From NCBI GenBank assembly GCA_012646185.1, contig GCA_012646185.1_4706.1: a DNA stretch of 64,000 nt. One strand, given 5' to 3'. Origin of the DNA: a phage. Positions within the stretch are counted from its first letter, which is position 1. Each line of letters opens with the position of its first letter. The position numbers and the translations under genes were made by a program. The notes beneath the pieces were generated by a model. The model had not been told where the DNA came from, ran no database searches, and saw nothing but the letters and a program-made list of their open reading frames with translations. Of this stretch, positions 2,330 through 37,233 are shown piece by piece.

Positions 2330-3655
2330 TCACTTCAAAAGCTTAGACACCGCCATGCTTCGCGCCATCGCAACGTCATACGCATCCATGATCGCGTCAC
2401 CGATAGCGGTATGACGGATCAACGGAATACCCATATCTGGATACTCTTTGGTGCCTAAGATGGATACCGGTTTGTCTTGATACGCGGCAACCATCGAACG
2501 AATATCCTGAACCTGGTTATAACGGCAGATTGGTTTGAAGCCCGCTTTACGGAACCAATGCTCTAATTGCGGCCAATCTGTTTCACCACGAGCAAGATAA
2601 TAGAAGGTATCTTTACCGTAGTATTCGGTCATTTTGTCACGAATACTGTTGACGAACGCATTTACTTCGGCGATGGCTTCTTTATAACCCATTGCCTTAC
2701 AATGTTGAAAACAATAGTCGCGCGCTTCCTTTGGTGCTTTGGTTTGCCACCATTCTACTGTTGATTCACTGATACGACCACCGTCAGCGATTTGACCATG
2801 AACGTCAGGGAAGATATCTATACGCGGACCGTTAACAATGGATTCTGGATTAGCCAGATCGAAGAACACGATACCGATTTCCAGCAATACTCCATTCTTT
2901 TCCAGACTAAGGTTTTCAACATCTAAACAAAATGCGGGCTTCTCTACCGCTAACGGCTCGAACGAATGGTTGCTGGTATCCGATTCGGTTTTAAGTTCGA
3001 CGACAGCCGGATCGGTATCCGTAGGTTTCAGTTCTACTACAGCATCATCGAGTCCCGATAACGAAAAATAGTCTTCGAAGAAATCGGATATCGTCATACC
3101 ATGCAAATTGATATCGCAATCTTCCAACCATTGCTTCAACTGGTGCTCACCGGCATGAATCGCTAAACGGCACGGTCCGGAACGATCATCTAGCGCTGCA
3201 TCGATCCAGAAGAAAGCGCGTATAAGTAAGTAAGGATTATACTCCGCGATGATTTCTTGGCTAGCCGAGAAATCGTACACCATTAGTTGTATTATTCCCT
3301 TACGCGTGTTATACGGATCAACTTTCAATCGACGCACTATTTCTTCTACGAATTCCAACGCGCGCGTGTACGAGGTGGACCCACCTTGTTCATACGAACA
3401 TATACCCGTCAAAAGTTCCTTATAGGACGCATATGGAACCATAGGCGATAATTTGTACGACAGTTCAGTATTGTAATTATCGCATAATTTCTTCGGGGCG
3501 ATAGCATCCTGTATCGCTGTAATAAACGCCGGTCCATCAATATCAAACAACCATCCTTGACGCCGGTATGCAGTGTACCGTAATAACGCACCGATAACTG
3601 CCTGGGGCGGTGTATATTCTTTCCCGTTAATTTCAAACAGTAGTTTGCTCATCAT
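2330..3655 (-). CDS. protein with C-terminal DEDDh-type 3'-5' exonuclease domain
   Basis: 441-aa ORF; Exo I-like FCLDVENLS, Exo III-like RHTAIGDAIMDAYD (H-x-A-x-x-D-A); internal repeat AVVELK x2. Confidence 0.55.
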   Translation of the reverse strand: MMSKLLFEINGKEYTPPQAVIGALLRYTAYRRQGWLFDIDGPAFITAIQDAIAPKKLCDNYNTELSYKLSPMVPYASYKELLTGICSYEQGGSTSYTRALEFVEEIVRRLKVDPYNTRKGIIQLMVYDFSASQEIIAEYNPYLLIRAFFWIDAALDDRSGPCRLAIHAGEHQLKQWLEDCDINLHGMTISDFFEDYFSLSGLDDAVVELKPTDTDPAVVELKTESDTSNHSFEPLAVEKPAFCLDVENLSLEKNGVLLEIGIVFFDLANPESIVNGPRIDIFPDVHGQIADGGRISESTVEWWQTKAPKEARDYCFQHCKAMGYKEAIAEVNAFVNSIRDKMTEYYGKDTFYYLARGETDWPQLEHWFRKAGFKPICRYNQVQDIRSMVAAYQDKPVSILGTKEYPDMGIPLIRHTAIGDAIMDAYDVAMARSMAVSKLLK

Positions 3656-3667
3656 AACACCTTTTCA

Positions 3668-6956: not shown

Positions 6957-6986
6957 CCACCTTCCTCCATGTTAAAGTGCGTTCAT

Positions 6987-7493
6987 TTATTCAGGTGTAC
7001 GTACGGTACGCGTGTTGGGATCAACCATTGCTGGCACACCCGCTGGACATTTACGGACATCGATCCGCATCTCCGGCTCGATCGGACGAACGCGATACGT
7101 TTTGCCGTCATCGGTTAACACCGAAATGGTCAACGCTTGGTTCAATTCACTAACGAAGCTCACCAAACGCTGTTGTCCGCCCTTCGACCAGAAGTTAAGA
7201 TCGGTTTCTCCATTGAAATAACTGATTCCATCAGCGGTTCCAATCGTGATTTTAACGATACCTGGATAGTCACGAAGAAGAGGTGCCTGATAACCTTCAT
7301 CTTCCGTATCCAGTTTTACCCACGCGCCTCCCGTAGACAAGCAGTTAACTTCCAAGGCGGTTGGTGCACTGACTTCTGCTGATGACCAGGTATACATCGT
7401 GCCTAGTTTAGCGTGTCCAGTTTCCAGTTCGCTATAATCCCAAGCATGTGCTGAAGCCGCAATAAACAAAGTCGCAAGAAACAACTTTTTCAT
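6987..7493 (-). CDS. secreted/periplasmic protein with Sec-type signal peptide
   Basis: 168-aa ORF; N-terminus MKKLFLATLFIAASAHA followed by W (n-h-c organisation, AHA cleavage motif). Confidence 0.55.
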   Translation of the reverse strand: MKKLFLATLFIAASAHAWDYSELETGHAKLGTMYTWSSAEVSAPTALEVNCLSTGGAWVKLDTEDEGYQAPLLRDYPGIVKITIGTADGISYFNGETDLNFWSKGGQQRLVSFVSELNQALTISVLTDDGKTYRVRPIEPEMRIDVRKCPAGVPAMVDPNTRTVRTPE

Positions 7494-7547
7494 TCTTTCG
7501 ATTCCTATTAAAAGTGACCGATTTCTGTGGTCGAGATTGCTAATAAA

Positions 7548-8398: not shown

Positions 8399-8956
8399 TT
8401 ACTCCATCCATACTTCTTCGTCGTAATGATTTTCTATCGCATTACGCCAAAAACGTACGGTGTCCAAACTAATCGGTGCGTAAAAGTGTTGGTCAACGCC
8501 GACGTTAAGTCCGTTGGCCTTCGCTAACATACAGCGATGAATATGACCGAATAAATTAAAGTAGCCTGGGTTTCTTTCGCTGGGCTTATGGCATAGCCAG
8601 TAGGATTCGTCATTGCTAATCGGCAATACCAGCGGGTGCTCATAAACAGCAGCAAACCCCATACCGAGCAGTTTATCACGCCACGCTTCGAAGCTTAATC
8701 CTGTCGCTTTGTATGCGTCTTCGTCCCAATTCCCCATTACCAATTGAACCTGGATATCAGAACGAATGGCTTCCACGAACTCGAACTTACCCCAATCACC
8801 TAAATGCCATAACACACTGTTCTTTGGAAGGTTGTTGATGGCTTTCAGCATATGCTGGTTCATATCGGCGACGCTTGCGAACGGACGGCGTGAATACGTC
8901 CATGTACGCTCGCTATCAAAATGGGTATCCGACATAAAGAAGATGGGTGGGGTCAT
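8399..8956 (-). CDS. calcineurin-like metallophosphoesterase
   Basis: 185-aa ORF; motifs SDTHFD (D-x-H), HLGDW (GD), GNWD (GNHD-like), GHIH (GH-x-H). Confidence 0.7.
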   Translation of the reverse strand: MTPPIFFMSDTHFDSERTWTYSRRPFASVADMNQHMLKAINNLPKNSVLWHLGDWGKFEFVEAIRSDIQVQLVMGNWDEDAYKATGLSFEAWRDKLLGMGFAAVYEHPLVLPISNDESYWLCHKPSERNPGYFNLFGHIHRCMLAKANGLNVGVDQHFYAPISLDTVRFWRNAIENHYDEEVWME

Positions 8957-9435
8957 TGATTTAATTGCTCCAGAAATGCGCGACCCGATTTACTTGCTTT
9001 TAAATGCTGTTCTGCGGAAGTAAGCAGAAGATCGGTTGGCGTATATGCAGCGCTACCTTTCCACGCTGTTTTCAGTTTACCCTTTTCGATACTGAACTGA
9101 ATCAGTTGTTGGGTACCGAAGTTAAGCGTGTTCGTCGCGGCGCTAAATACACCGCCCATCATGCTGTAACCAAAGACTTTCACGTTTTCCGTGTAGAAGT
9201 CGTTATCGATCAATTTGTTCTGGAGCTCGAGTTGGTCGGACGGCAGCAATCCCCCATCAAAGACGCTTAAAATACCAGCCAGGCGATACATGCTCACCTT
9301 TCCTGAAACGCCCACCACGTAGTTGCCGTACAGGGTTTCTTCCAGTTTAGCAACAACGGTGCGATCGTCGGAGGTTTTCATCGAAACCTCAATACCATCA
9401 CCAACTTCTGTTAACGTTAAATCAACGATACTCAT
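8953..9435 (-). CDS. hypothetical protein
   Basis: 160-aa ORF. Confidence 0.45.
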   Translation of the reverse strand: MSIVDLTLTEVGDGIEVSMKTSDDRTVVAKLEETLYGNYVVGVSGKVSMYRLAGILSVFDGGLLPSDQLELQNKLIDNDFYTENVKVFGYSMMGGVFSAATNTLNFGTQQLIQFSIEKGKLKTAWKGSAAYTPTDLLLTSAEQHLKASKSGRAFLEQLNQ

Positions 9436-10143: not shown

Positions 10144-10184
10144 CGCACGTACCTCTTTGAATCTATTAATAAATTTTCTTTACT

Positions 10185-10208
10185 CACGTAAGTAATATAG
10201 CCGTGAAA
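10185..10208 (-). promoter_or_regulatory. early-promoter-like motif (minus-strand TTTCACGGCTATATTACTTACGTG)
   Basis: Contains TATATTAC; about 45 nt upstream of gene 9457-10143; one of four near-identical copies. Confidence 0.5.
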
Positions 10209-10287
10209 GGATTTGTGTTGGTCCGTCTCGATGCCCATCGTATTTTATGGATTGTCGAATGACGTCATTTTAAGGGACATCCCCGGC

Positions 10288-10316
10288 CTCCTCCCCAGGA
10301 AAGGTGTGGGGAGGAG
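10288..10316 (+). terminator. GC-rich stem-loop followed by T-run
   Basis: ctcctcccca...tggggaggag then ttttt on the plus strand. Confidence 0.35.
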
Positions 10317-10351
10317 TTTTTATCATACATTCTATTAAATCGAGCGCGATT

Positions 10352-12433
10352 ATGTTGGATAGAATCAATCGTTTAATGAACCGAATAACGGTTAAAAATC
10401 AGAGTAACAACACCGTGCATATCGGGGGTATCGATGCCTGGCGTCTTTCAGATGACATTCAGCGAATATGGGGTACCTCCCGATTTATGAAACATATGTT
10501 TCGTAATTTCTCTTCTAGTGGACTCAGTCTCCACAACTTTTACCTTCCCGATTTCGTTTATATTCTCGAAACGATCATCGAAGCAAAGAATACCCGTAGC
10601 AACAAACGCATGCTGAAACACCTTATTGAGGTACTGCTACAGGAAACCTGGCTGCAAAATACCACAATCGAGCAACCTGCAATCCTCGATAAAGCACGCA
10701 TGAACAAAATGCTAACGCTCTCTTTGTTCGATTATCAAGATGAGTTTATCGACATCTATAACCGTAACGTACCTAAATACCGACTGAAAGGATACGTGTG
10801 CGCGATGGGTGCTGGTGCGGGTAAAACAATCACCGCATTGGCTTTAAGCGCCGCAATGAACGTCGACGTATTTGTGGTCTGCTGTCCTAAGAACACCATG
10901 CGTTCAGCATGGCAATCCGATGTAAACAAAGCCATCGTTGACCCCGCAACAGAAACCGCGTTCTGGTCAGACACAATGCCACCATCACAGCTGCAGAAAA
11001 GCGATAAGTATTATTTTCTGCATTACGAATCGATGGGTTTATTAAACGATGTAATGATCAAGCATAAACGCACAGCGAAGCGCGTTCTTATTGTTGTTGA
11101 CGAAAGCCATAACTTCAACGACAAGAACAGCCAACGTTCCCAACGACTGGTTGATCTTGTACAGACAATGCGTCAAACCATGAATGCGGATGTGCACGTC
11201 TTGTTTATGTCGGGTACGCCTGTTAAACAAATGGGTTCTGAGATGATCCCCTGTTTAGGTTGTATCGACCCGATGTTCCAAGGACAGGTGGTCGATAGCT
11301 TCAAATCAATTTACGGTTTAACCAGCAGTCGCGCTAACGATATCCTCAGACATCGTCTTGGGTTCATGATGCATGTCGTACCTAAAGAGGCTTATCGTAA
11401 AACCCGTCCGGAAGTTCAGGACGTTTACGTGAAGCTCCCTAACGGTAGCGATTATACCATCTCAAGTATCCGCGACGACATGGCGGTATTTGTACGCGAT
11501 CGGGCGAAGTATTACAAGGATAACTGGGGGCATTACAGAAAGATTTTTGATGACGCCTTGGACTACTATCGTAAGACTATTCGTACCGATGGTGAACGTA
11601 AAGAGCTATCTCGATACGAATCGATTGTTACTCGTTTCCAGAAAGGTTACGATCCCGTCAGAGACAAAGAAGATGCGATGTTCTGCAATACGTTTGAAAA
11701 ACGAGCGATCATGCCGGTTCTTCCTTCCGATTTAAGGATCGCTTTCAAAGACGCCAAGAGCGTCATCAAGTACGTTGGGTTGAAAATTCAGGGTGAAGCG
11801 TTAGCGCGCGTTCTCGGTGCAGCCCGCATTCGGTGTCATGTCGACATGGTGGAGTACATCGACTTCGAAGGGTACATCAACAACGCTGAAGCCAAAGTGT
11901 TGATCTTCACGTCGTACGTTCAGGTGGTTGAGCGCGTCGACAACCTGCTTCGTGATGCGGGTTTCTTACCGGAACCCATTTACGGGAAGACCAACAAAAA
12001 CATCAACCAAATACTTGCTCGTCTACGCGATGATCCTGACAGCGGTCCCGCTATTGCAACATTTGATAGCTTAGCTGAAGGGGTTCCGATGCTGATGTGT
12101 AATGTCGGCCTTTTCCTGAACAACCCGTGGCGTTCATCCGATGAAATCCAAGCCATCAGCCGTCTCGATCGCGTAGGACAAACGCAGCCTGTTCGGATTT
12201 ATCGTTTCATGTTGGATACAGGAAGCGAGGGTAACGTTTCTACACGTAGCCACGAAATCATGGAGTTAAGTCGACAGCTTGTTGAAGAAATCACGGGTGT
12301 CAAATATGTTGTGAACAAGCAAGATGATGTTAACTTGCAAGAAACGTTGGCAATGGAAGGATACGACCAATACGTTACCGTAAACACCACGGAATACGAT
12401 ATTAAACCACGACCTGCGTTCTTGGAATGGTGA
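10352..12433 (+). CDS. SNF2-family SF2 helicase/ATPase
   Basis: Walker A GAGAGKT, motif II VVDESH, motif VI QAISRLDRVGQ; start placed at first ATG after the stem-loop (track ORF begins at 10304 with GTG inside the hairpin). Confidence 0.65.
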   Translation: MLDRINRLMNRITVKNQSNNTVHIGGIDAWRLSDDIQRIWGTSRFMKHMFRNFSSSGLSLHNFYLPDFVYILETIIEAKNTRSNKRMLKHLIEVLLQETWLQNTTIEQPAILDKARMNKMLTLSLFDYQDEFIDIYNRNVPKYRLKGYVCAMGAGAGKTITALALSAAMNVDVFVVCCPKNTMRSAWQSDVNKAIVDPATETAFWSDTMPPSQLQKSDKYYFLHYESMGLLNDVMIKHKRTAKRVLIVVDESHNFNDKNSQRSQRLVDLVQTMRQTMNADVHVLFMSGTPVKQMGSEMIPCLGCIDPMFQGQVVDSFKSIYGLTSSRANDILRHRLGFMMHVVPKEAYRKTRPEVQDVYVKLPNGSDYTISSIRDDMAVFVRDRAKYYKDNWGHYRKIFDDALDYYRKTIRTDGERKELSRYESIVTRFQKGYDPVRDKEDAMFCNTFEKRAIMPVLPSDLRIAFKDAKSVIKYVGLKIQGEALARVLGAARIRCHVDMVEYIDFEGYINNAEAKVLIFTSYVQVVERVDNLLRDAGFLPEPIYGKTNKNINQILARLRDDPDSGPAIATFDSLAEGVPMLMCNVGLFLNNPWRSSDEIQAISRLDRVGQTQPVRIYRFMLDTGSEGNVSTRSHEIMELSRQLVEEITGVKYVVNKQDDVNLQETLAMEGYDQYVTVNTTEYDIKPRPAFLEW

Positions 12434-12440
12434 TTAAGAA

Positions 12441-12464
12441 GCTCTGCATGATGTCAGGCAGAGC
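12441..12464 (+). terminator. stem-loop gctctgc...gcagagc
   Basis: Inverted repeat then TTTATA immediately after helicase stop. Confidence 0.4.
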
Positions 12465-12534
12465 TTTATACTTGCATTTGTTGCAACAATCGTATGACGT
12501 ATACGCGTTGTACTTATTTAATAAGGCAGAATAA

Positions 12535-13986
12535 ATGAAACTTAAACAAAGCTGGAAAGACGAACTTCTCGCGTTAGTAAATAGCAAAAACAGCTTACAG
12601 CTGACATTAGCCGACGTAAAATTTGAACTAACTGAACCGGTAAGCGAAGTGCCCGGAACGGTTGTCGTTACGATCAAACCGAACGATGATAGCCGTTACT
12701 TTAACGAGCAGTCTCTGACCTACATCCGTCGAGACATCGCTAAAAACTTCACCGGGATCCCGTTACGGGTTATCGTTAAAAATGATACCGCCGTAAGGGA
12801 TATCATCAATACGATTGCTGAACGTTACGGATTGGTATTTGACACAACCATCGACTTCCTCGAATCCGAGCTGAATAAGCAGATTACGTTCGAAGACACC
12901 GGTATTAAAGACATTACGGTTCCGGTTGCAAACACGTCTTATGTTTGGGCTGGTAATCTTCAGTTCAATATCGCTAACGATACGTTGAGCTTGATTACGA
13001 TCATCAAGCAAACCAATCTTACGAATCTGGTTTATCTGGATGGTGTTGAATCTAACACATCGGGTTCGTTACTATTAGCAACGACCTCGGTTATCGGCGA
13101 AAACGGAAATGCCGAAACAACTGAAGGTGTCCTTGACGCCGCGTACTTCCAGAATATCCTGAACGTCATGGTTCGTTATGGTGATATTACCAGCGAACAA
13201 ATGCAACAAGCAATGCAGACAATTAACGGAAGCGAAGACGCTCGTAGAGTAGAGGTGCGGTCATACGGTGACGCCGAATTACTGGTAACCACCAAGAAAG
13301 ATTGGGTTATCGGTAGCCTTAAGGGTGCTATGGTTGTTGGTCACGCTTCACCTAAACCAATCCAATACGTTCTTAAAACAAAAGGCGGCACCATTATATT
13401 GTCATTAGATGGTTGGACAAATGTCAATATCGATTGGGGTGATGGGAATAAGACGACGCAGGACTCAGGCGATAATGAATATCAGCACAATTATGCGGAC
13501 ACTACAGAACGTACGATCGTCGCTACGGGTACCCCTACCAACGTTGGAGATACAGACGTACAGCAAAGCTTCACCGGTGGTAACATCACTGAAATCGTTG
13601 ACTGGAACAACGGATTACCTAAGGCCCCATCATTACTTGCAGCGAACAGTTTAACTAAGGTTCCCGATTATATCCCGGCATACTGGACATCGTTAGAAGG
13701 TATGTTTACGCGATGCAGCGCTATTAACGACGTGAACATCACCAAATGGAACACCCGCAACGTTACTTCAATGAAGGACCTCTTCTACGGTTGCGCTACG
13801 TTCAACCAACCGATCGGTTCGTGGGATGTTTCGTCTGTTAAGAATGCAGACAATATGTTGTCTGGGTGCTTCGCGTTCAATCAGGATCTGAGTGGTTGGA
13901 CATTCCCGGCAGGCACTTCACACATCAACTACGACGCCATGACCGCCGCATGGCAGGCTGGTTATAAACCACACTTCACCGAGTAA
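12535..13986 (+). CDS. DUF285/BspA-like repeat protein (possible surface or host-interaction protein)
   Basis: 483-aa ORF; C-terminal tandem repeats MF.RC..N..I.KW.T.NVT.M..LF.GC..FNQ.I..WDVS.V.N...M..GC..FNQDLS.W. Confidence 0.6.
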   Translation: MKLKQSWKDELLALVNSKNSLQLTLADVKFELTEPVSEVPGTVVVTIKPNDDSRYFNEQSLTYIRRDIAKNFTGIPLRVIVKNDTAVRDIINTIAERYGLVFDTTIDFLESELNKQITFEDTGIKDITVPVANTSYVWAGNLQFNIANDTLSLITIIKQTNLTNLVYLDGVESNTSGSLLLATTSVIGENGNAETTEGVLDAAYFQNILNVMVRYGDITSEQMQQAMQTINGSEDARRVEVRSYGDAELLVTTKKDWVIGSLKGAMVVGHASPKPIQYVLKTKGGTIILSLDGWTNVNIDWGDGNKTTQDSGDNEYQHNYADTTERTIVATGTPTNVGDTDVQQSFTGGNITEIVDWNNGLPKAPSLLAANSLTKVPDYIPAYWTSLEGMFTRCSAINDVNITKWNTRNVTSMKDLFYGCATFNQPIGSWDVSSVKNADNMLSGCFAFNQDLSGWTFPAGTSHINYDAMTAAWQAGYKPHFTE

Positions 13987-13999
13987 AAAAAAAAAAAAA
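13985..13999. repeat. A15 homopolymer tract
   Basis: 15 consecutive A overlapping the stop codon of 12535-13986. Confidence 0.9.
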
Positions 14000-14011
14000 T
14001 AGATAGCATAT

Positions 14012-32914: not shown

Positions 32915-33379
32915 TTAAACCAAAGCTGCGATAACGTCGTTAACATTACGGCCTCGCAACTCTGCCGCTAAACGAATAACTTCATCCAGGGAACGGTTTG
33001 TACGAATCTTGGCCACTTTCCAATTTTCAGGATACTGTTCGAAGTTAAGCAACCAAGTCATTACCTTTGCTTGTTCCATACCGTTGAGTTTGATTGTCGT
33101 GCGCGGATTGGCTTTGAACCACTTCTTGCTCAGCTGCGCCATACGGCGAACAGGGTAAGCGTAAGCGCGAGTCCAGTCTTTGGACAGATTGTCGAGTAAT
33201 TCACAGTAGCTGTTGTCGTAGTCTTTGTTGATACGACGTAATAACCAGTTGGCGGTCATCTGATAAAGTTTATCATCTTCACGTAACCGCATACCTGCTA
33301 CTGCTAAATAAATGATAAGACCTGCGCCCAGGATGAGAGACAGGATAAACAGAATTTGGGTTTCTTGTGCTAAAGTCAT
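32915..33379 (-). CDS. membrane-anchored protein (single N-terminal TM helix)
   Basis: 154-aa ORF; hydrophobic stretch ILFILSLILGAGLIIYLAVAG; early-promoter-like motif about 90 nt upstream. Confidence 0.5.
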   Translation of the reverse strand: MTLAQETQILFILSLILGAGLIIYLAVAGMRLREDDKLYQMTANWLLRRINKDYDNSYCELLDNLSKDWTRAYAYPVRRMAQLSKKWFKANPRTTIKLNGMEQAKVMTWLLNFEQYPENWKVAKIRTNRSLDEVIRLAAELRGRNVNDVIAALV

Positions 33380-35257: not shown

Positions 35258-35617
35258 CAAAATCTTCAGTATGAATCGCTACTTCATACCCGCAGCATTA
35301 CCTGCAGCTCCTGGTGTTACCAGGATGTTGAGAGTATATCATGCCCATATTCCAAATGGAACGTAGGACTTCCGCGCTGGATCTCGCTTGAGACCACTTA
35401 CTCGTTGAACGTTCTCCTAAACGGAGCTTCGCTGCTGATTGGACATTGTTACGTACGGTAGGCGTCCCATTAAAGGGATTTTCATTGAAGCCGCGTACAT
35501 CCGTTACCTTGTTTCTACCTTATCGGTTCCTCTTACGAGGCGTAACGGCTTTAGCCTATTCCAGCAATTCACGGAATGCATATTCTCCTTTTCAGGAGAT
35601 AAGGCCATGGCTCTGGC
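35258..35617 (-). ncRNA. putative self-splicing intron 1 (ORF-less, group I-like), boundaries approximate
   Basis: About 360-nt hairpin-rich sequence between DFDGD codons and resumption of beta-prime homology; tandem relative of intron 2. Confidence 0.5.
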
Positions 35618-35632
35618 ATCACCGTCAAAGTC
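35618..35632 (-). CDS. RNA polymerase beta-prime micro-exon encoding DFDGD (proposed)
   Basis: Minus-strand codons GAC TTT GAC GGT GAT; flanked by the two intron copies; exon 1 ends ...GYNA. Confidence 0.5.
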
Positions 35633-35982
35633 CACATATCTTCAGTATGAATCGCTACTTCATACCCGCAGCATTACCTGCAGCTCCTGGTGTTACCAGG
35701 ACGGAGAGATCATCTCATCACCCACGAAGGGTGTTCCGCGCTACCCTCAGCGAATTCGAGGGACATGATCGTTGAACCTTCCACCGATAATCGGTGGCTA
35801 GGCTGCTGATTAAACATTGTACGTTGGGGTGGCATCCTGGTTCAGGACTGTCGTTGAAGCCTCCCAACATCCACTCACTTATTTCCGCCTTATCGGCTCC
35901 CATAAGGGCAGAGTGGCTTTAGCCCGTCTCAGCAATTCACGGAATTCAAGCTCTTCCTTTCAGAAGGCAGGGCCTCATCTGA
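35633..35982 (-). ncRNA. putative self-splicing intron 2 (ORF-less, group I-like), boundaries approximate
   Basis: Follows the codon for Ala of ...KGYNA (exon ends in U); RNA ends in G just before GAC of DFDGD; track ORF reads 17 codons into it then stops. Confidence 0.5.
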
Positions 35983-37233
35983 AGCATTGTATCCCTTAAG
36001 GATCATCACGCTTAACCCGATGGTGTTATCCTGCGGATCGCGTTTAACCTTGGTGATTTCAAGACATTGGTTACTGCTTCGGTCAAGTGATGGGTTTCGA
36101 ACAAAGCCGCACACAATCCCATCGAACGGCGTATCAGCAATAAGCTCATCGTGCAGCTCGCTCATCATCGGATGATAATTACGGACATGTTCCGCAACGA
36201 ACGCACGCGCTGCTCTCGGTGAGTAACCACGATGGAATAACTTGGATTGGATATGTTCTTTATTGGTTAAAGTAAATGGTGCGTATGGGAAATGCAGATG
36301 ATAATAACGATGGTTCGCTGTTATCGAACTGATTACGGTACGCGTGGTGAATGGATGTAATGTACCTAATATGTTTTTACGTGTAATACCTTTCTTCTTA
36401 CCGATGAACTCATCGAAAATCGCTGCGTGGTATTGCAGTAGCTTCAATTGCACTTTCGCCATCCAGTTTTCTTTCTTTCTGGCGCTCAAAGGTGTTGTTG
36501 GATGATAGATACTGTTCAACGTACCAATAGCATCGATCGCACCTTCCATTTTGCTATCCGCATAACGACCGGTCGGCGTATTTTCGATAACGAACATCAT
36601 GGCTGCAGGAAAGCTGATATACTGACTGAAGAACTTATCACGATGGATACGGATGAATTCTCGTAGCGTGTCAACTTTCTCCATGTTCTTCGGTCCACGT
36701 AACGTCGGTCCTTTATACAAGATCTCCATGATGCGATCGAAGTTCTGTATAAAGCTATTTACGCCACGCCGTATCCCGAATACATCGAATTGCTGCTCCA
36801 GATAGTTCTTGAGTTCGATGGGTCGTTTTACATTTGGACGGTAACTGGCATCAATGAGCCACGTCATCGTTTCAAAGCTTTTGATATTCAACTCGCTTGC
36901 CAGCACGAGATGGACCAACGGGTTAATGAACGCATCGATTCCTTCAGGAACGCGCGCCCAAACCGTCGAACGAATCTCTTGTTCTGCTGGGTAGGTTACA
37001 ACCGTTTTACAGTTTGGACACACCGTGCCGAGTAGCTCACCACGATTGTAGAAACCACAACCACATTGTGGTGTGATATCCAACGTATCGCTGGAGTAAA
37101 CACGGGTGATAAAACTGTTTAATTTCTTCTTCTCTTCGACGACTTTTGTATCGTAATCATTCAACAAAATCGGCGTGAAAGGAAGTTCTGCGAGCTGTCT
37201 ATCGAAACTCACGATATCGAGCATGATGGCCAT
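35983..37233 (-). CDS. RNA polymerase beta-prime N-terminal subunit, exon 1
   Basis: Zn-finger CGCGFYNRGELLGTVCPNCKTVV (compare CxCGKY...C..CGVEV); NPSLDRSS (compare NRQPSLHK / NRAPTLHR); IGLSVMILKGYNA (compare LNLSVTSPYNA) immediately before the missing DFDGD. Confidence 0.65.

Follow-up and report, generated by a model that had tools for sequence, protein, structure and literature searches.

An early-type gene of a Goslar-like jumbo phage predicted to encode a Sec-exported periplasmic protein

The 64,000-nucleotide stretch of DNA analyzed in the present study (contig GCA_012646185.1_4706.1 of the GenBank assembly GCA_012646185.1, hereafter called the window) carries, on its minus strand, a small coding sequence whose product is predicted to leave the cytoplasm of the host (Table 1). 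The nucleotide sequence around this gene is 96.2% identical to that of Escherichia phage vB_EcoM_Goslar, a jumbo phage of E. coli that forms a nucleus and has a genome of 237 kb, and other parts of the window encode the Goslar nuclear shell protein, PhuZ, RNA polymerase subunits, DNA polymerase, and terminase. Judged from these matches, the window is Goslar-like chimallivirus DNA, in agreement with an earlier reading of the same DNA (the original prediction), which had called the protein phage-encoded. The open reading frame (ORF) is, on the same grounds, the ortholog of Goslar gp154 (HOV27_gp154, YP_009820839.1, 173 amino acids), which is annotated in GenBank as "hypothetical protein" and whose name is used for the window copy below. 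The amino acid identity of this copy is 98% to Goslar gp154, from which it differs by the substitutions A8T, T12A, and N112S, and 97 to 98% to Goslar-type proteins. The gene lies between gp155 and gp153 within a leftward run of small uncharacterized genes, which is flanked by those for an HD phosphohydrolase (gp159), a metallophosphoesterase (gp157), and an exoribonuclease (gp147). No in-frame start exists upstream of its ATG, which is the first possible start after the preceding stop, and a Shine-Dalgarno-like AGGA precedes it. A scan for sigma-70 promoters and terminators near the gene gave fewer sites than were found in shuffled sequence.

Table 1 Features of the gp154 ortholog in the window.
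Feature	Coordinates	Strand	Details
Coding sequence, 168 codons plus TAA	6987..7493	minus	ATG 7493..7491, TAA 6989..6987; from ORF list and translation
Shine-Dalgarno-like AGGA	7503..7506	minus	9 nt 5' of the ATG, read from the minus-strand sequence
Predicted Sec/signal peptidase I signal peptide MKKLFLATLFIAASAHA, codons 1-17	7443..7493	minus	n/h/c analysis
Predicted mature periplasmic domain, 151 amino acids	6990..7442	minus	16.6 kDa, pI 4.7, no hydrophobic segment
Cys51 codon, first cysteine	7341..7343	minus	invariant column in the alignment of both clades
Cys149 codon, second cysteine	7047..7049	minus	invariant column in the alignment of both clades
Premature TAA stop, absent from all relatives (GAA to TAA, codon 169)	6987..6989	minus	translation RTVRTPE, stop, MNAL, stop

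The 168-amino-acid product opens with MKKLFLATLFIAASAHAWDYSE (also given as MKKLFLATLFIAASAHAWDYSELETGH), and the N-terminus of the precursor can be divided into MKKLFLATLFIAASAHA and the WDYSE that follows, with cleavage predicted between A17 and W18. The n-region, M-K-K, bears a charge of +2 and no acidic residue; the uncharged h-region extends from L4 to A13 or A15, that is, over 11 to 13 residues, with a Kyte-Doolittle mean of 2.71 for its best nine residues; and the c-region, S-A-H-A, places A15 at position -3, followed by H16, and A17 at -1. Trp18, and not Pro, occupies position +1, at the head of an acidic mature N-terminus. A set of rules was defined that demands a positive charge in the n-region, a core of 8 or more residues that is free of charge and averages 1.8 or higher in hydropathy, small side chains at -3 and -1, and a residue other than Pro at +1. 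These rules are passed by 0.2% of random N-termini with the amino acid composition of the window, and gp154 alone passes them among the 72 gene-sized ORFs of the window, where 0.14 would be expected by chance; when all window ORFs of at least 60 amino acids are considered, two of 220 pass. Two of the three amino acid differences from Goslar gp154 fall in the leader, and both of them (A8T and T12A) are conservative. Because Cys is absent before residue 51, gp154 has no lipobox; a lipobox Cys at +1, as in T5 Llp, Cor, and o-spanins, was found neither in the leader nor beside it, and the lipoprotein reading was dropped for that reason. The twin-arginine translocation reading was likewise dropped, since the leader contains no twin arginine, and so was that of a signal-arrest-release (SAR) domain because the leader is not of the weakly hydrophobic SAR type. 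The 19-residue hydropathy across the N-terminus is approximately 0.8 (from summed per-residue values), and because no 19-residue stretch anywhere in the protein exceeds 1.0, gp154 is predicted to have no membrane-spanning segment.

More weight can be given to the evolutionary conservation of this architecture, which is a stronger argument from sequence than the rarity of passing the rules. A sister clade, represented by P0003 and P0006 (176 amino acids), is 44% identical to gp154, and its leader, MKH[VA]VKSVIAAALV[FL]SSSAFA followed by WE, has diverged yet passes the same rules in both proteins, keeping a positive n-region (MKHVVK or MKHAVK), an uncharged core, the A-x-A motif (as A-F-A), and Trp at +1. 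The sister gene lies on a 181-kb phage contig with the same gene order (SNF2 helicase, HD, unknown, metallophosphoesterase, small genes, gp155-like gene, and gp154 ortholog), and at its locus, L002, a comparable AAGG is located 7 nt 5' of the start. The N-terminal 24 residues of P0003 match weakly (E 0.02) the signal-peptide end of the NCBIfam model of the periplasmic protein Asr; as a family assignment, this nonsignificant match was dropped. The n-h-c layout and A-x-A motif described in the original prediction are exactly those of the translation, and its assignment of a classical Sec signal peptide agrees with every sequence criterion that could be tested, including conservation in the 44%-identity clade, so that gp154 is very probably exported. 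Every gp154 relative of both clades possesses exactly two cysteines. A single periplasmic disulfide would explain why both are invariant, and a C51-C149 bond of this kind is somewhat favored. As a separate observation on the sister phage, its gp154 ortholog is immediately followed by a 78-amino-acid ORF (L002 10543-10779, plus strand) whose product has a transmembrane segment, IMSIIVIGGVVVMSAVAAI, at the C-terminus and to which nothing corresponds at that place in the Goslar-like genomes.

The gene shows the marks of strong purifying selection: the ratio of nonsynonymous to synonymous substitution rates (dN/dS) is 0.03 to 0.07 for all pairs among four Goslar-like genomes, and the window copy differs from Goslar gp154 by 22 synonymous and 3 nonsynonymous changes. 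The premature TAA at codon 169, which, like the strand, was missing from the original prediction, removes the last five residues, which are conserved as E[LM]N[AT]L; behind it, the former frame still reads MNAL and a stop (6972-6986). All other copies examined (Goslar, L004, L005, P0001, P0002, P0003, and P0006) have full-length C-termini. Either the protein can do without these five residues, or the window allele is slightly impaired. One of these copies, P0002, is labeled as a Shigella flexneri protein, but it lies on a 247-kb contig of assembly GCA_031658775.1 that is itself a complete Goslar-like genome. Its start region (L007 2988-3003) contains one A too many in the ATGAAAAA(A)G run (the ATGAAAAAG run) and a second extra A just upstream, and because of the extra A in the run the gene caller starts at a TTG (codon 4), giving a shorter N-terminus, MFLAAFF. 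A variant without an n-region was therefore dropped as an interpretation of P0002, whose start probably reflects a homopolymer sequencing error.

Little can be recognized in the mature domain by homology. Scans of Pfam, PHROG, NCBIfam, and PADLOC gave no family match for gp154; a TraK_N match of the sister clade was dropped as subthreshold (13 to 14 bits vs a cutoff of 24.8), and so was the best sequence match in the PDB, FlgK (E 0.035). An exhaustive phmmer search of 1.84 billion representatives returned the Goslar clade, the one 44% clade, and two long ankyrin-repeat proteins, which matched through repeated NLLNDDGDSA segments and were discarded as repeat artifacts. This search, together with a word-indexed search, its profile repeat, tblastn of 50,697 phage records, and IMG/VR, found homologs solely in Goslar-like phages and the 44% clade and none in bacteria. 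On this evidence, gp154 is an accessory gene confined to Goslar-like phages, a distribution that we take to be typical of host-interface functions. Two AlphaFold2 runs gave the same order of secondary structure elements, i.e., six strands, a helix, and a hairpin, with a mean predicted local distance difference test score of 65 to 66, a value attained by a single model out of five per run. A search with this predicted beta-rich fold found no convincing structural relative; IalB (invasion-associated locus B, PDB 3dtd) is placed among the closest known systems.

Published transcriptome data place the gene in time. Knockdown of ChmA, the chimallin of the nuclear shell, arrests Goslar infection at the vesicle stage, and at 30 min the log2 fold changes (log2FC) of gp154 in the knockdown relative to the control were +0.66, +0.74, and +0.30 (Sup. 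Table 2, bioRxiv 10.1101/2023.09.20.558163). The whole gp146-gp159 block behaves likewise, with reads unchanged or somewhat increased, whereas the neighboring genes of rightward orientation, gp160 and gp161, drop approximately 30-fold (log2FC of about -5) and structural genes 16- to 100-fold (log2FC of -4 to -7) (bioRxiv 10.1101/2023.09.20.558163). The absence of a decrease assigns gp154 to a chimallin-independent, early-type class, since the authors of the RNA sequencing study equated the nucleus-independent class with early transcription (bioRxiv 10.1101/2023.09.20.558163). Reads per nucleotide, as computed from the published counts and the lengths of the coding sequences, are roughly even over gp159-gp152, a pattern that a single polycistronic early-type transcript could produce. 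The fall of gp160 and gp161 against the early-type block also implies a sharp early/late boundary in the divergent intergenic region at approximately 10144-10303; beyond it, at 10304-14000 on the plus strand, the window encodes the gp160 and gp161 products, a SNF2 helicase and a DUF7941/leucine-rich-repeat protein. A separate point concerns gp158 (window 8953-9435, minus strand), a 160-amino-acid protein of unknown function encoded three genes upstream of gp154, which is among the most abundant proteins of Goslar virion preparations (approximately 926 copies by label-free quantification, LFQ) and yet belongs to the chimallin-independent block (log2FC of about +0.8).

The protein itself has been detected. 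In the liquid chromatography-tandem mass spectrometry analysis of CsCl-purified Goslar virions, gp154 was identified by 2 unique peptides with 15.03% coverage and a -10lgP of 148, and its LFQ level corresponds to about 11 copies per virion, with a range of approximately 7 to 17 (Table S4, bioRxiv 10.64898/2026.04.21.720040). This detection proves translation but not packaging. Gp154 might nevertheless be a cytoplasmic, low-copy, virion-associated protein whose signal-like N-terminus is fortuitous or serves as a membrane-active segment after ejection. Its presence in CsCl-banded virions would agree with such a role, its copy number matches those of portal, neck, and tail-terminator proteins, and the same gene block supplies genuine or abundant virion proteins, namely the capsid latch gp146 and gp158. 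However, gp154 is neither among the 28 proteins of the Goslar virion model nor among the packaged proteins that were discussed, and the same preparation contained approximately 126 copies of chimallin, 171 copies of PhuZ, and many E. coli proteins (Table S4, bioRxiv 10.64898/2026.04.21.720040). Because these nonvirion proteins are far more abundant, a signal equivalent to 11 copies is within carry-over, and it is read here as lysate carry-over or, possibly, as binding to virions after lysis, of which a periplasmic protein would also be capable. A conserved n/h/c leader, an A-x-A motif, and a cysteine pair are, moreover, unexpected for a cytoplasmic protein, and we consider a virion-associated role very unlikely. 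As for the processed N-terminus, no gp154 peptide starting A to EL is among the peptides listed, and the peptide of residues 4-29, LFLAALFITASAHAWDYSELETGHAK, would span the predicted site between A17 and W18. Pairs of peptides totaling exactly 26 of the 173 residues have seven solutions, three of which contain WDYSELETGHAK, the expected product of signal peptidase; the coverage of 15.03% is thus arithmetically compatible with a peptide starting at W18 but is no proof of it.

If the N-terminus were not cleaved, it would act as a signal anchor holding a periplasm-facing domain in the inner membrane or in the membrane of the early-infection (EPI) vesicle. A type II anchor could likewise consist of a hydrophobic N-terminal stretch behind a positively charged n-region, and chimalliviruses do form a membrane-bound early compartment, but the uncharged core is only 11 to 13 residues long, the 19-residue hydropathy across the N-terminus is approximately 0.8 vs roughly 1.6 or more for the transmembrane helices found elsewhere in the window, and the canonical A-x-A directly after the core is kept in both clades, which together make an anchor distinctly unlikely. 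Other alternatives accept export and differ in what the protein would do in the periplasm. It might control lysis as an antiholin-like sensor or another lysis-timing factor, given that lysis of other large lytic coliphages is under the control of periplasmic domains, such as that of T4 RI; on the other hand, none of the adjacent genes encodes a holin, an endolysin, or a spanin, the neighbors being those for the HD phosphohydrolase, the metallophosphoesterase, the exonuclease, and small unknown proteins, the transcription is of the early, nucleus-independent type and not of the late class, and the leader does not resemble a SAR domain. A role in lysis control is therefore thought unlikely. Inhibition of a muralytic enzyme, in the manner of MliC/PliC or T4 Spackle, was raised by the FWSKG that the Goslar-type protein shares with E. 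coli MliC. The conserved motifs of MliC/PliC proteins are SxSGAxY and YxxxTKG, and an hhalign alignment of residues 58-108 with residues 43-89 of MliC, at 40% identity, covers the MliC motifs SASGARY and YVFWSKG; in addition, the gp154 family shows no variation at G85, A87, G89, S91, Y92, W102, and K104. The equivalent segments, TADGISY and LNFWSKG in the Goslar clade and DADGTSY and LKLWNKD in the sister clade, resemble the motifs in part, but FWSKG is absent from the sister clade, the BLASTP match extends over 7 residues with an E value of 0.061, that of hhalign is 0.087, and the Pfam MliC profile matched none of five gp154 family members at E values up to 10. The relationship, being statistically unsupported, was dropped, and an inhibitor of this kind is regarded as highly improbable.

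The explanation that we consider probable as a whole is that gp154 is a soluble early protein, exported via Sec and cleaved by signal peptidase I. The leftward gp159-to-gp146 block would be transcribed without the phage nucleus, as part of the virion-RNA-polymerase class, and the gp154 precursor would be translated in the cytoplasm from this early-type mRNA, then carried across the inner membrane by the Sec machinery of the host. Signal peptidase I would cut after Ala17 (between A-H-A and W) to release a soluble, acidic, beta-rich domain of approximately 16.6 kDa into the periplasm of E. coli, where it would fold, probably with one disulfide made by DsbA between Cys51 and Cys149. Given early-type transcription, the protein can reach the envelope early in infection. 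What it might do there is a matter of greater doubt: a protective role at the level of the envelope, either blocking the entry of further phages or protecting the progeny and the infected cell, is put forward only tentatively, with lysis timing, inhibition of a periplasmic enzyme, and other roles sharing the rest of the probability. The early-type expression, the distribution limited to one host-specific phage group, and the strong constraint all fit a role at the host interface, although as hints at function they are indirect.

For the superinfection exclusion or envelope remodeling suggested in the original prediction, which the present data neither support nor contradict, the closest functional analogy is T4 Spackle, a protein of helical fold that inhibits the tail lysozyme of phages attempting a second infection. 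As is predicted for gp154, it is a small soluble early protein of a large lytic coliphage that is exported via a cleavable signal peptide, whereas the domain of gp154 is predicted to be beta-rich, and no sequence relationship between the two was detected by Pfam, PHROG, or homolog searches. Spackle is described as a periplasmic superinfection-exclusion protein (PMC7677548). The lipoproteins of the T5 Llp and Cor type are phage-encoded, early, and envelope-acting, and they block reinfection and protect the progeny; they have a lipobox Cys, in place of which gp154 has a signal peptidase I A-x-A motif. Several points weigh against our explanation. A leader of 17 residues is near the lower limit of length for signal peptides of Gram-negative bacteria, the actual cleavage and export are deduced from rules and conservation, and an LFQ level similar to those of genuine low-copy structural proteins is unexpected for a periplasmic protein. 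No link of the mature domain to exclusion, lysis, or inhibitor families was found in the searches described above, and doubly infected Goslar cells with two nuclei have been reported, which means that any exclusion is not immediate or absolute.

A possible counterpart exists in Vibrio phages. The best match of the gp154 model in BFVD, obtained with a model of moderate confidence, is a 151-amino-acid protein of Vibrio phage VP4B, V9LZ94 (Foldseek E 8.5e-4, template modeling score 0.50). VP4B is a 236-kb jumbo phage (Gorgonvirinae/Tidunavirus), of a group that presumably encodes chimallin. V9LZ94 could not be mapped to one accession because at least two VP4B coding sequences are 151 amino acids long, the second of which, AGB07182.1, has no signal peptide, whereas AGB07144.1, when read from an ATG five codons upstream, opens with MRKSLMIFVLWFVASAANA followed by AY. 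AGB07144.1 and gp154 have two cysteines at comparable positions, and in BLASTP the TIWLIGEDG hairpin that follows a helix in the former is aligned with TISVLTDDG of gp154, and RKQC..VP with RKC..VP. The proteins of this Vibrio/Photobacterium family (VP4B AGB07144.1, pTD1, Aphrodite1, USC-1, PDCC-1, and phiKT1028; 154 to 158 amino acids) are similar in size to gp154 and share with it a Sec-type leader, exactly two invariant Cys, and a helix followed by a [DE]DG hairpin; the leader of one member, MKKIFTLFAMLFFTLSAHA followed by DY, is strikingly like MKKLFLAALFITASAHA followed by WDY in Goslar. By tblastn, the family was found in 15 related Vibrio/Photobacterium jumbo phage records, some of them GenBank/RefSeq duplicates, and six of the seven aligned members have a signal peptide, the protein of USC-1 (P0012) being N-terminally truncated as called. 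When the first 20 kb of the window was compared with the first 50 kb of VP4B, the HD-domain gene was the only homolog pair detectable by BLASTP, and in both genomes no more than about 2 kb separates it from the gene for the signal-peptide protein. The sequences themselves gave no link (BLASTP E 1.9; hhalign E 0.14 and 0.073; hmmsearch scores within the shuffled null), and the relationship was dropped as a sequence match and kept as a structural and contextual lead; the chance that the two families are related is about even, or slightly better. In VP4B, five consecutive genes directly upstream of the signal-peptide gene (L008 30715-33427, plus strand) encode N-terminal transmembrane segments, two of them in one product, and form a small cluster for envelope-directed proteins near the DHFR, HD, and thymidylate synthase genes.

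If gp154 and the HD-adjacent Vibrio proteins constituted one ancient family of Sec-exported early proteins in nucleus-forming phages, its role might be tied to the entry route specific to chimalliviruses, an idea that we regard as a long shot. The EPI vesicle is thought to be derived from the inner membrane, and its lumen would then be topologically periplasmic; a Sec leader could thus bring a newly made phage protein to the injection site on its periplasmic face, or into the lumen if SecYEG stays functional in the vesicle. Roles for gp154-type proteins could in that case include sealing of the entry site, maturation of the vesicle, or exclusion of a second genome.

Comparison of the window with Goslar also gave some observations unrelated to export. 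The window phage lacks a Goslar segment of about 1.5 kb (168164-169661) that comprises the HNH endonuclease gene gp186 and an annotated group I intron, and in its place, beside the RNA polymerase beta' gene, there are approximately 400 bp of unaligned sequence (35577-35984). An Rfam scan of the whole window returned no family at the gathering score, and the window has no tRNA genes. In the gp147 region (2949-3663, minus strand), the exoribonuclease is 441 amino acids long vs 409 in Goslar, and about 700 bp inside the gene cannot be aligned to Goslar at the nucleotide level, while the flanks are 94 to 96% identical. Among the gene proxies of the window, four have a 19-residue hydropathy of at least 1.6, the strongest by far, and the sole N-terminal one, being Goslar gp182 (32915-33379, minus strand), a 154-amino-acid hypothetical protein with the transmembrane segment ILFILSLILGAGLIIYLAV (hydropathy 2.79); gp182 is also of the early type (log2FC of about +1.2).

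The gene is already in GenBank and phage-encoded periplasmic proteins are of a well-known kind, but no mention of the signal peptide, localization, or function of gp154 was found in the literature searched, and a 2025 review of nucleus-forming jumbo phages does not contain the words "periplasm," "secreted," or "transmembrane" and treats superinfection exclusion as a general concept only. These phages have been studied almost wholly for events in the cytoplasm, such as those of the vesicle, nucleus, and spindle and the import of proteins. If gp154 is merely another exclusion or housekeeping factor, the present result would be a useful annotation and no surprise, and there is a small chance of a tie to the membrane vesicle stage or of a secreted family conserved across chimalliviruses. 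A strongly constrained early protein that is predicted to leave the cytoplasm offers a testable handle on the envelope side of chimallivirus infection, which covers secondary infection and its exclusion, defense of the entry site, and release of the progeny.

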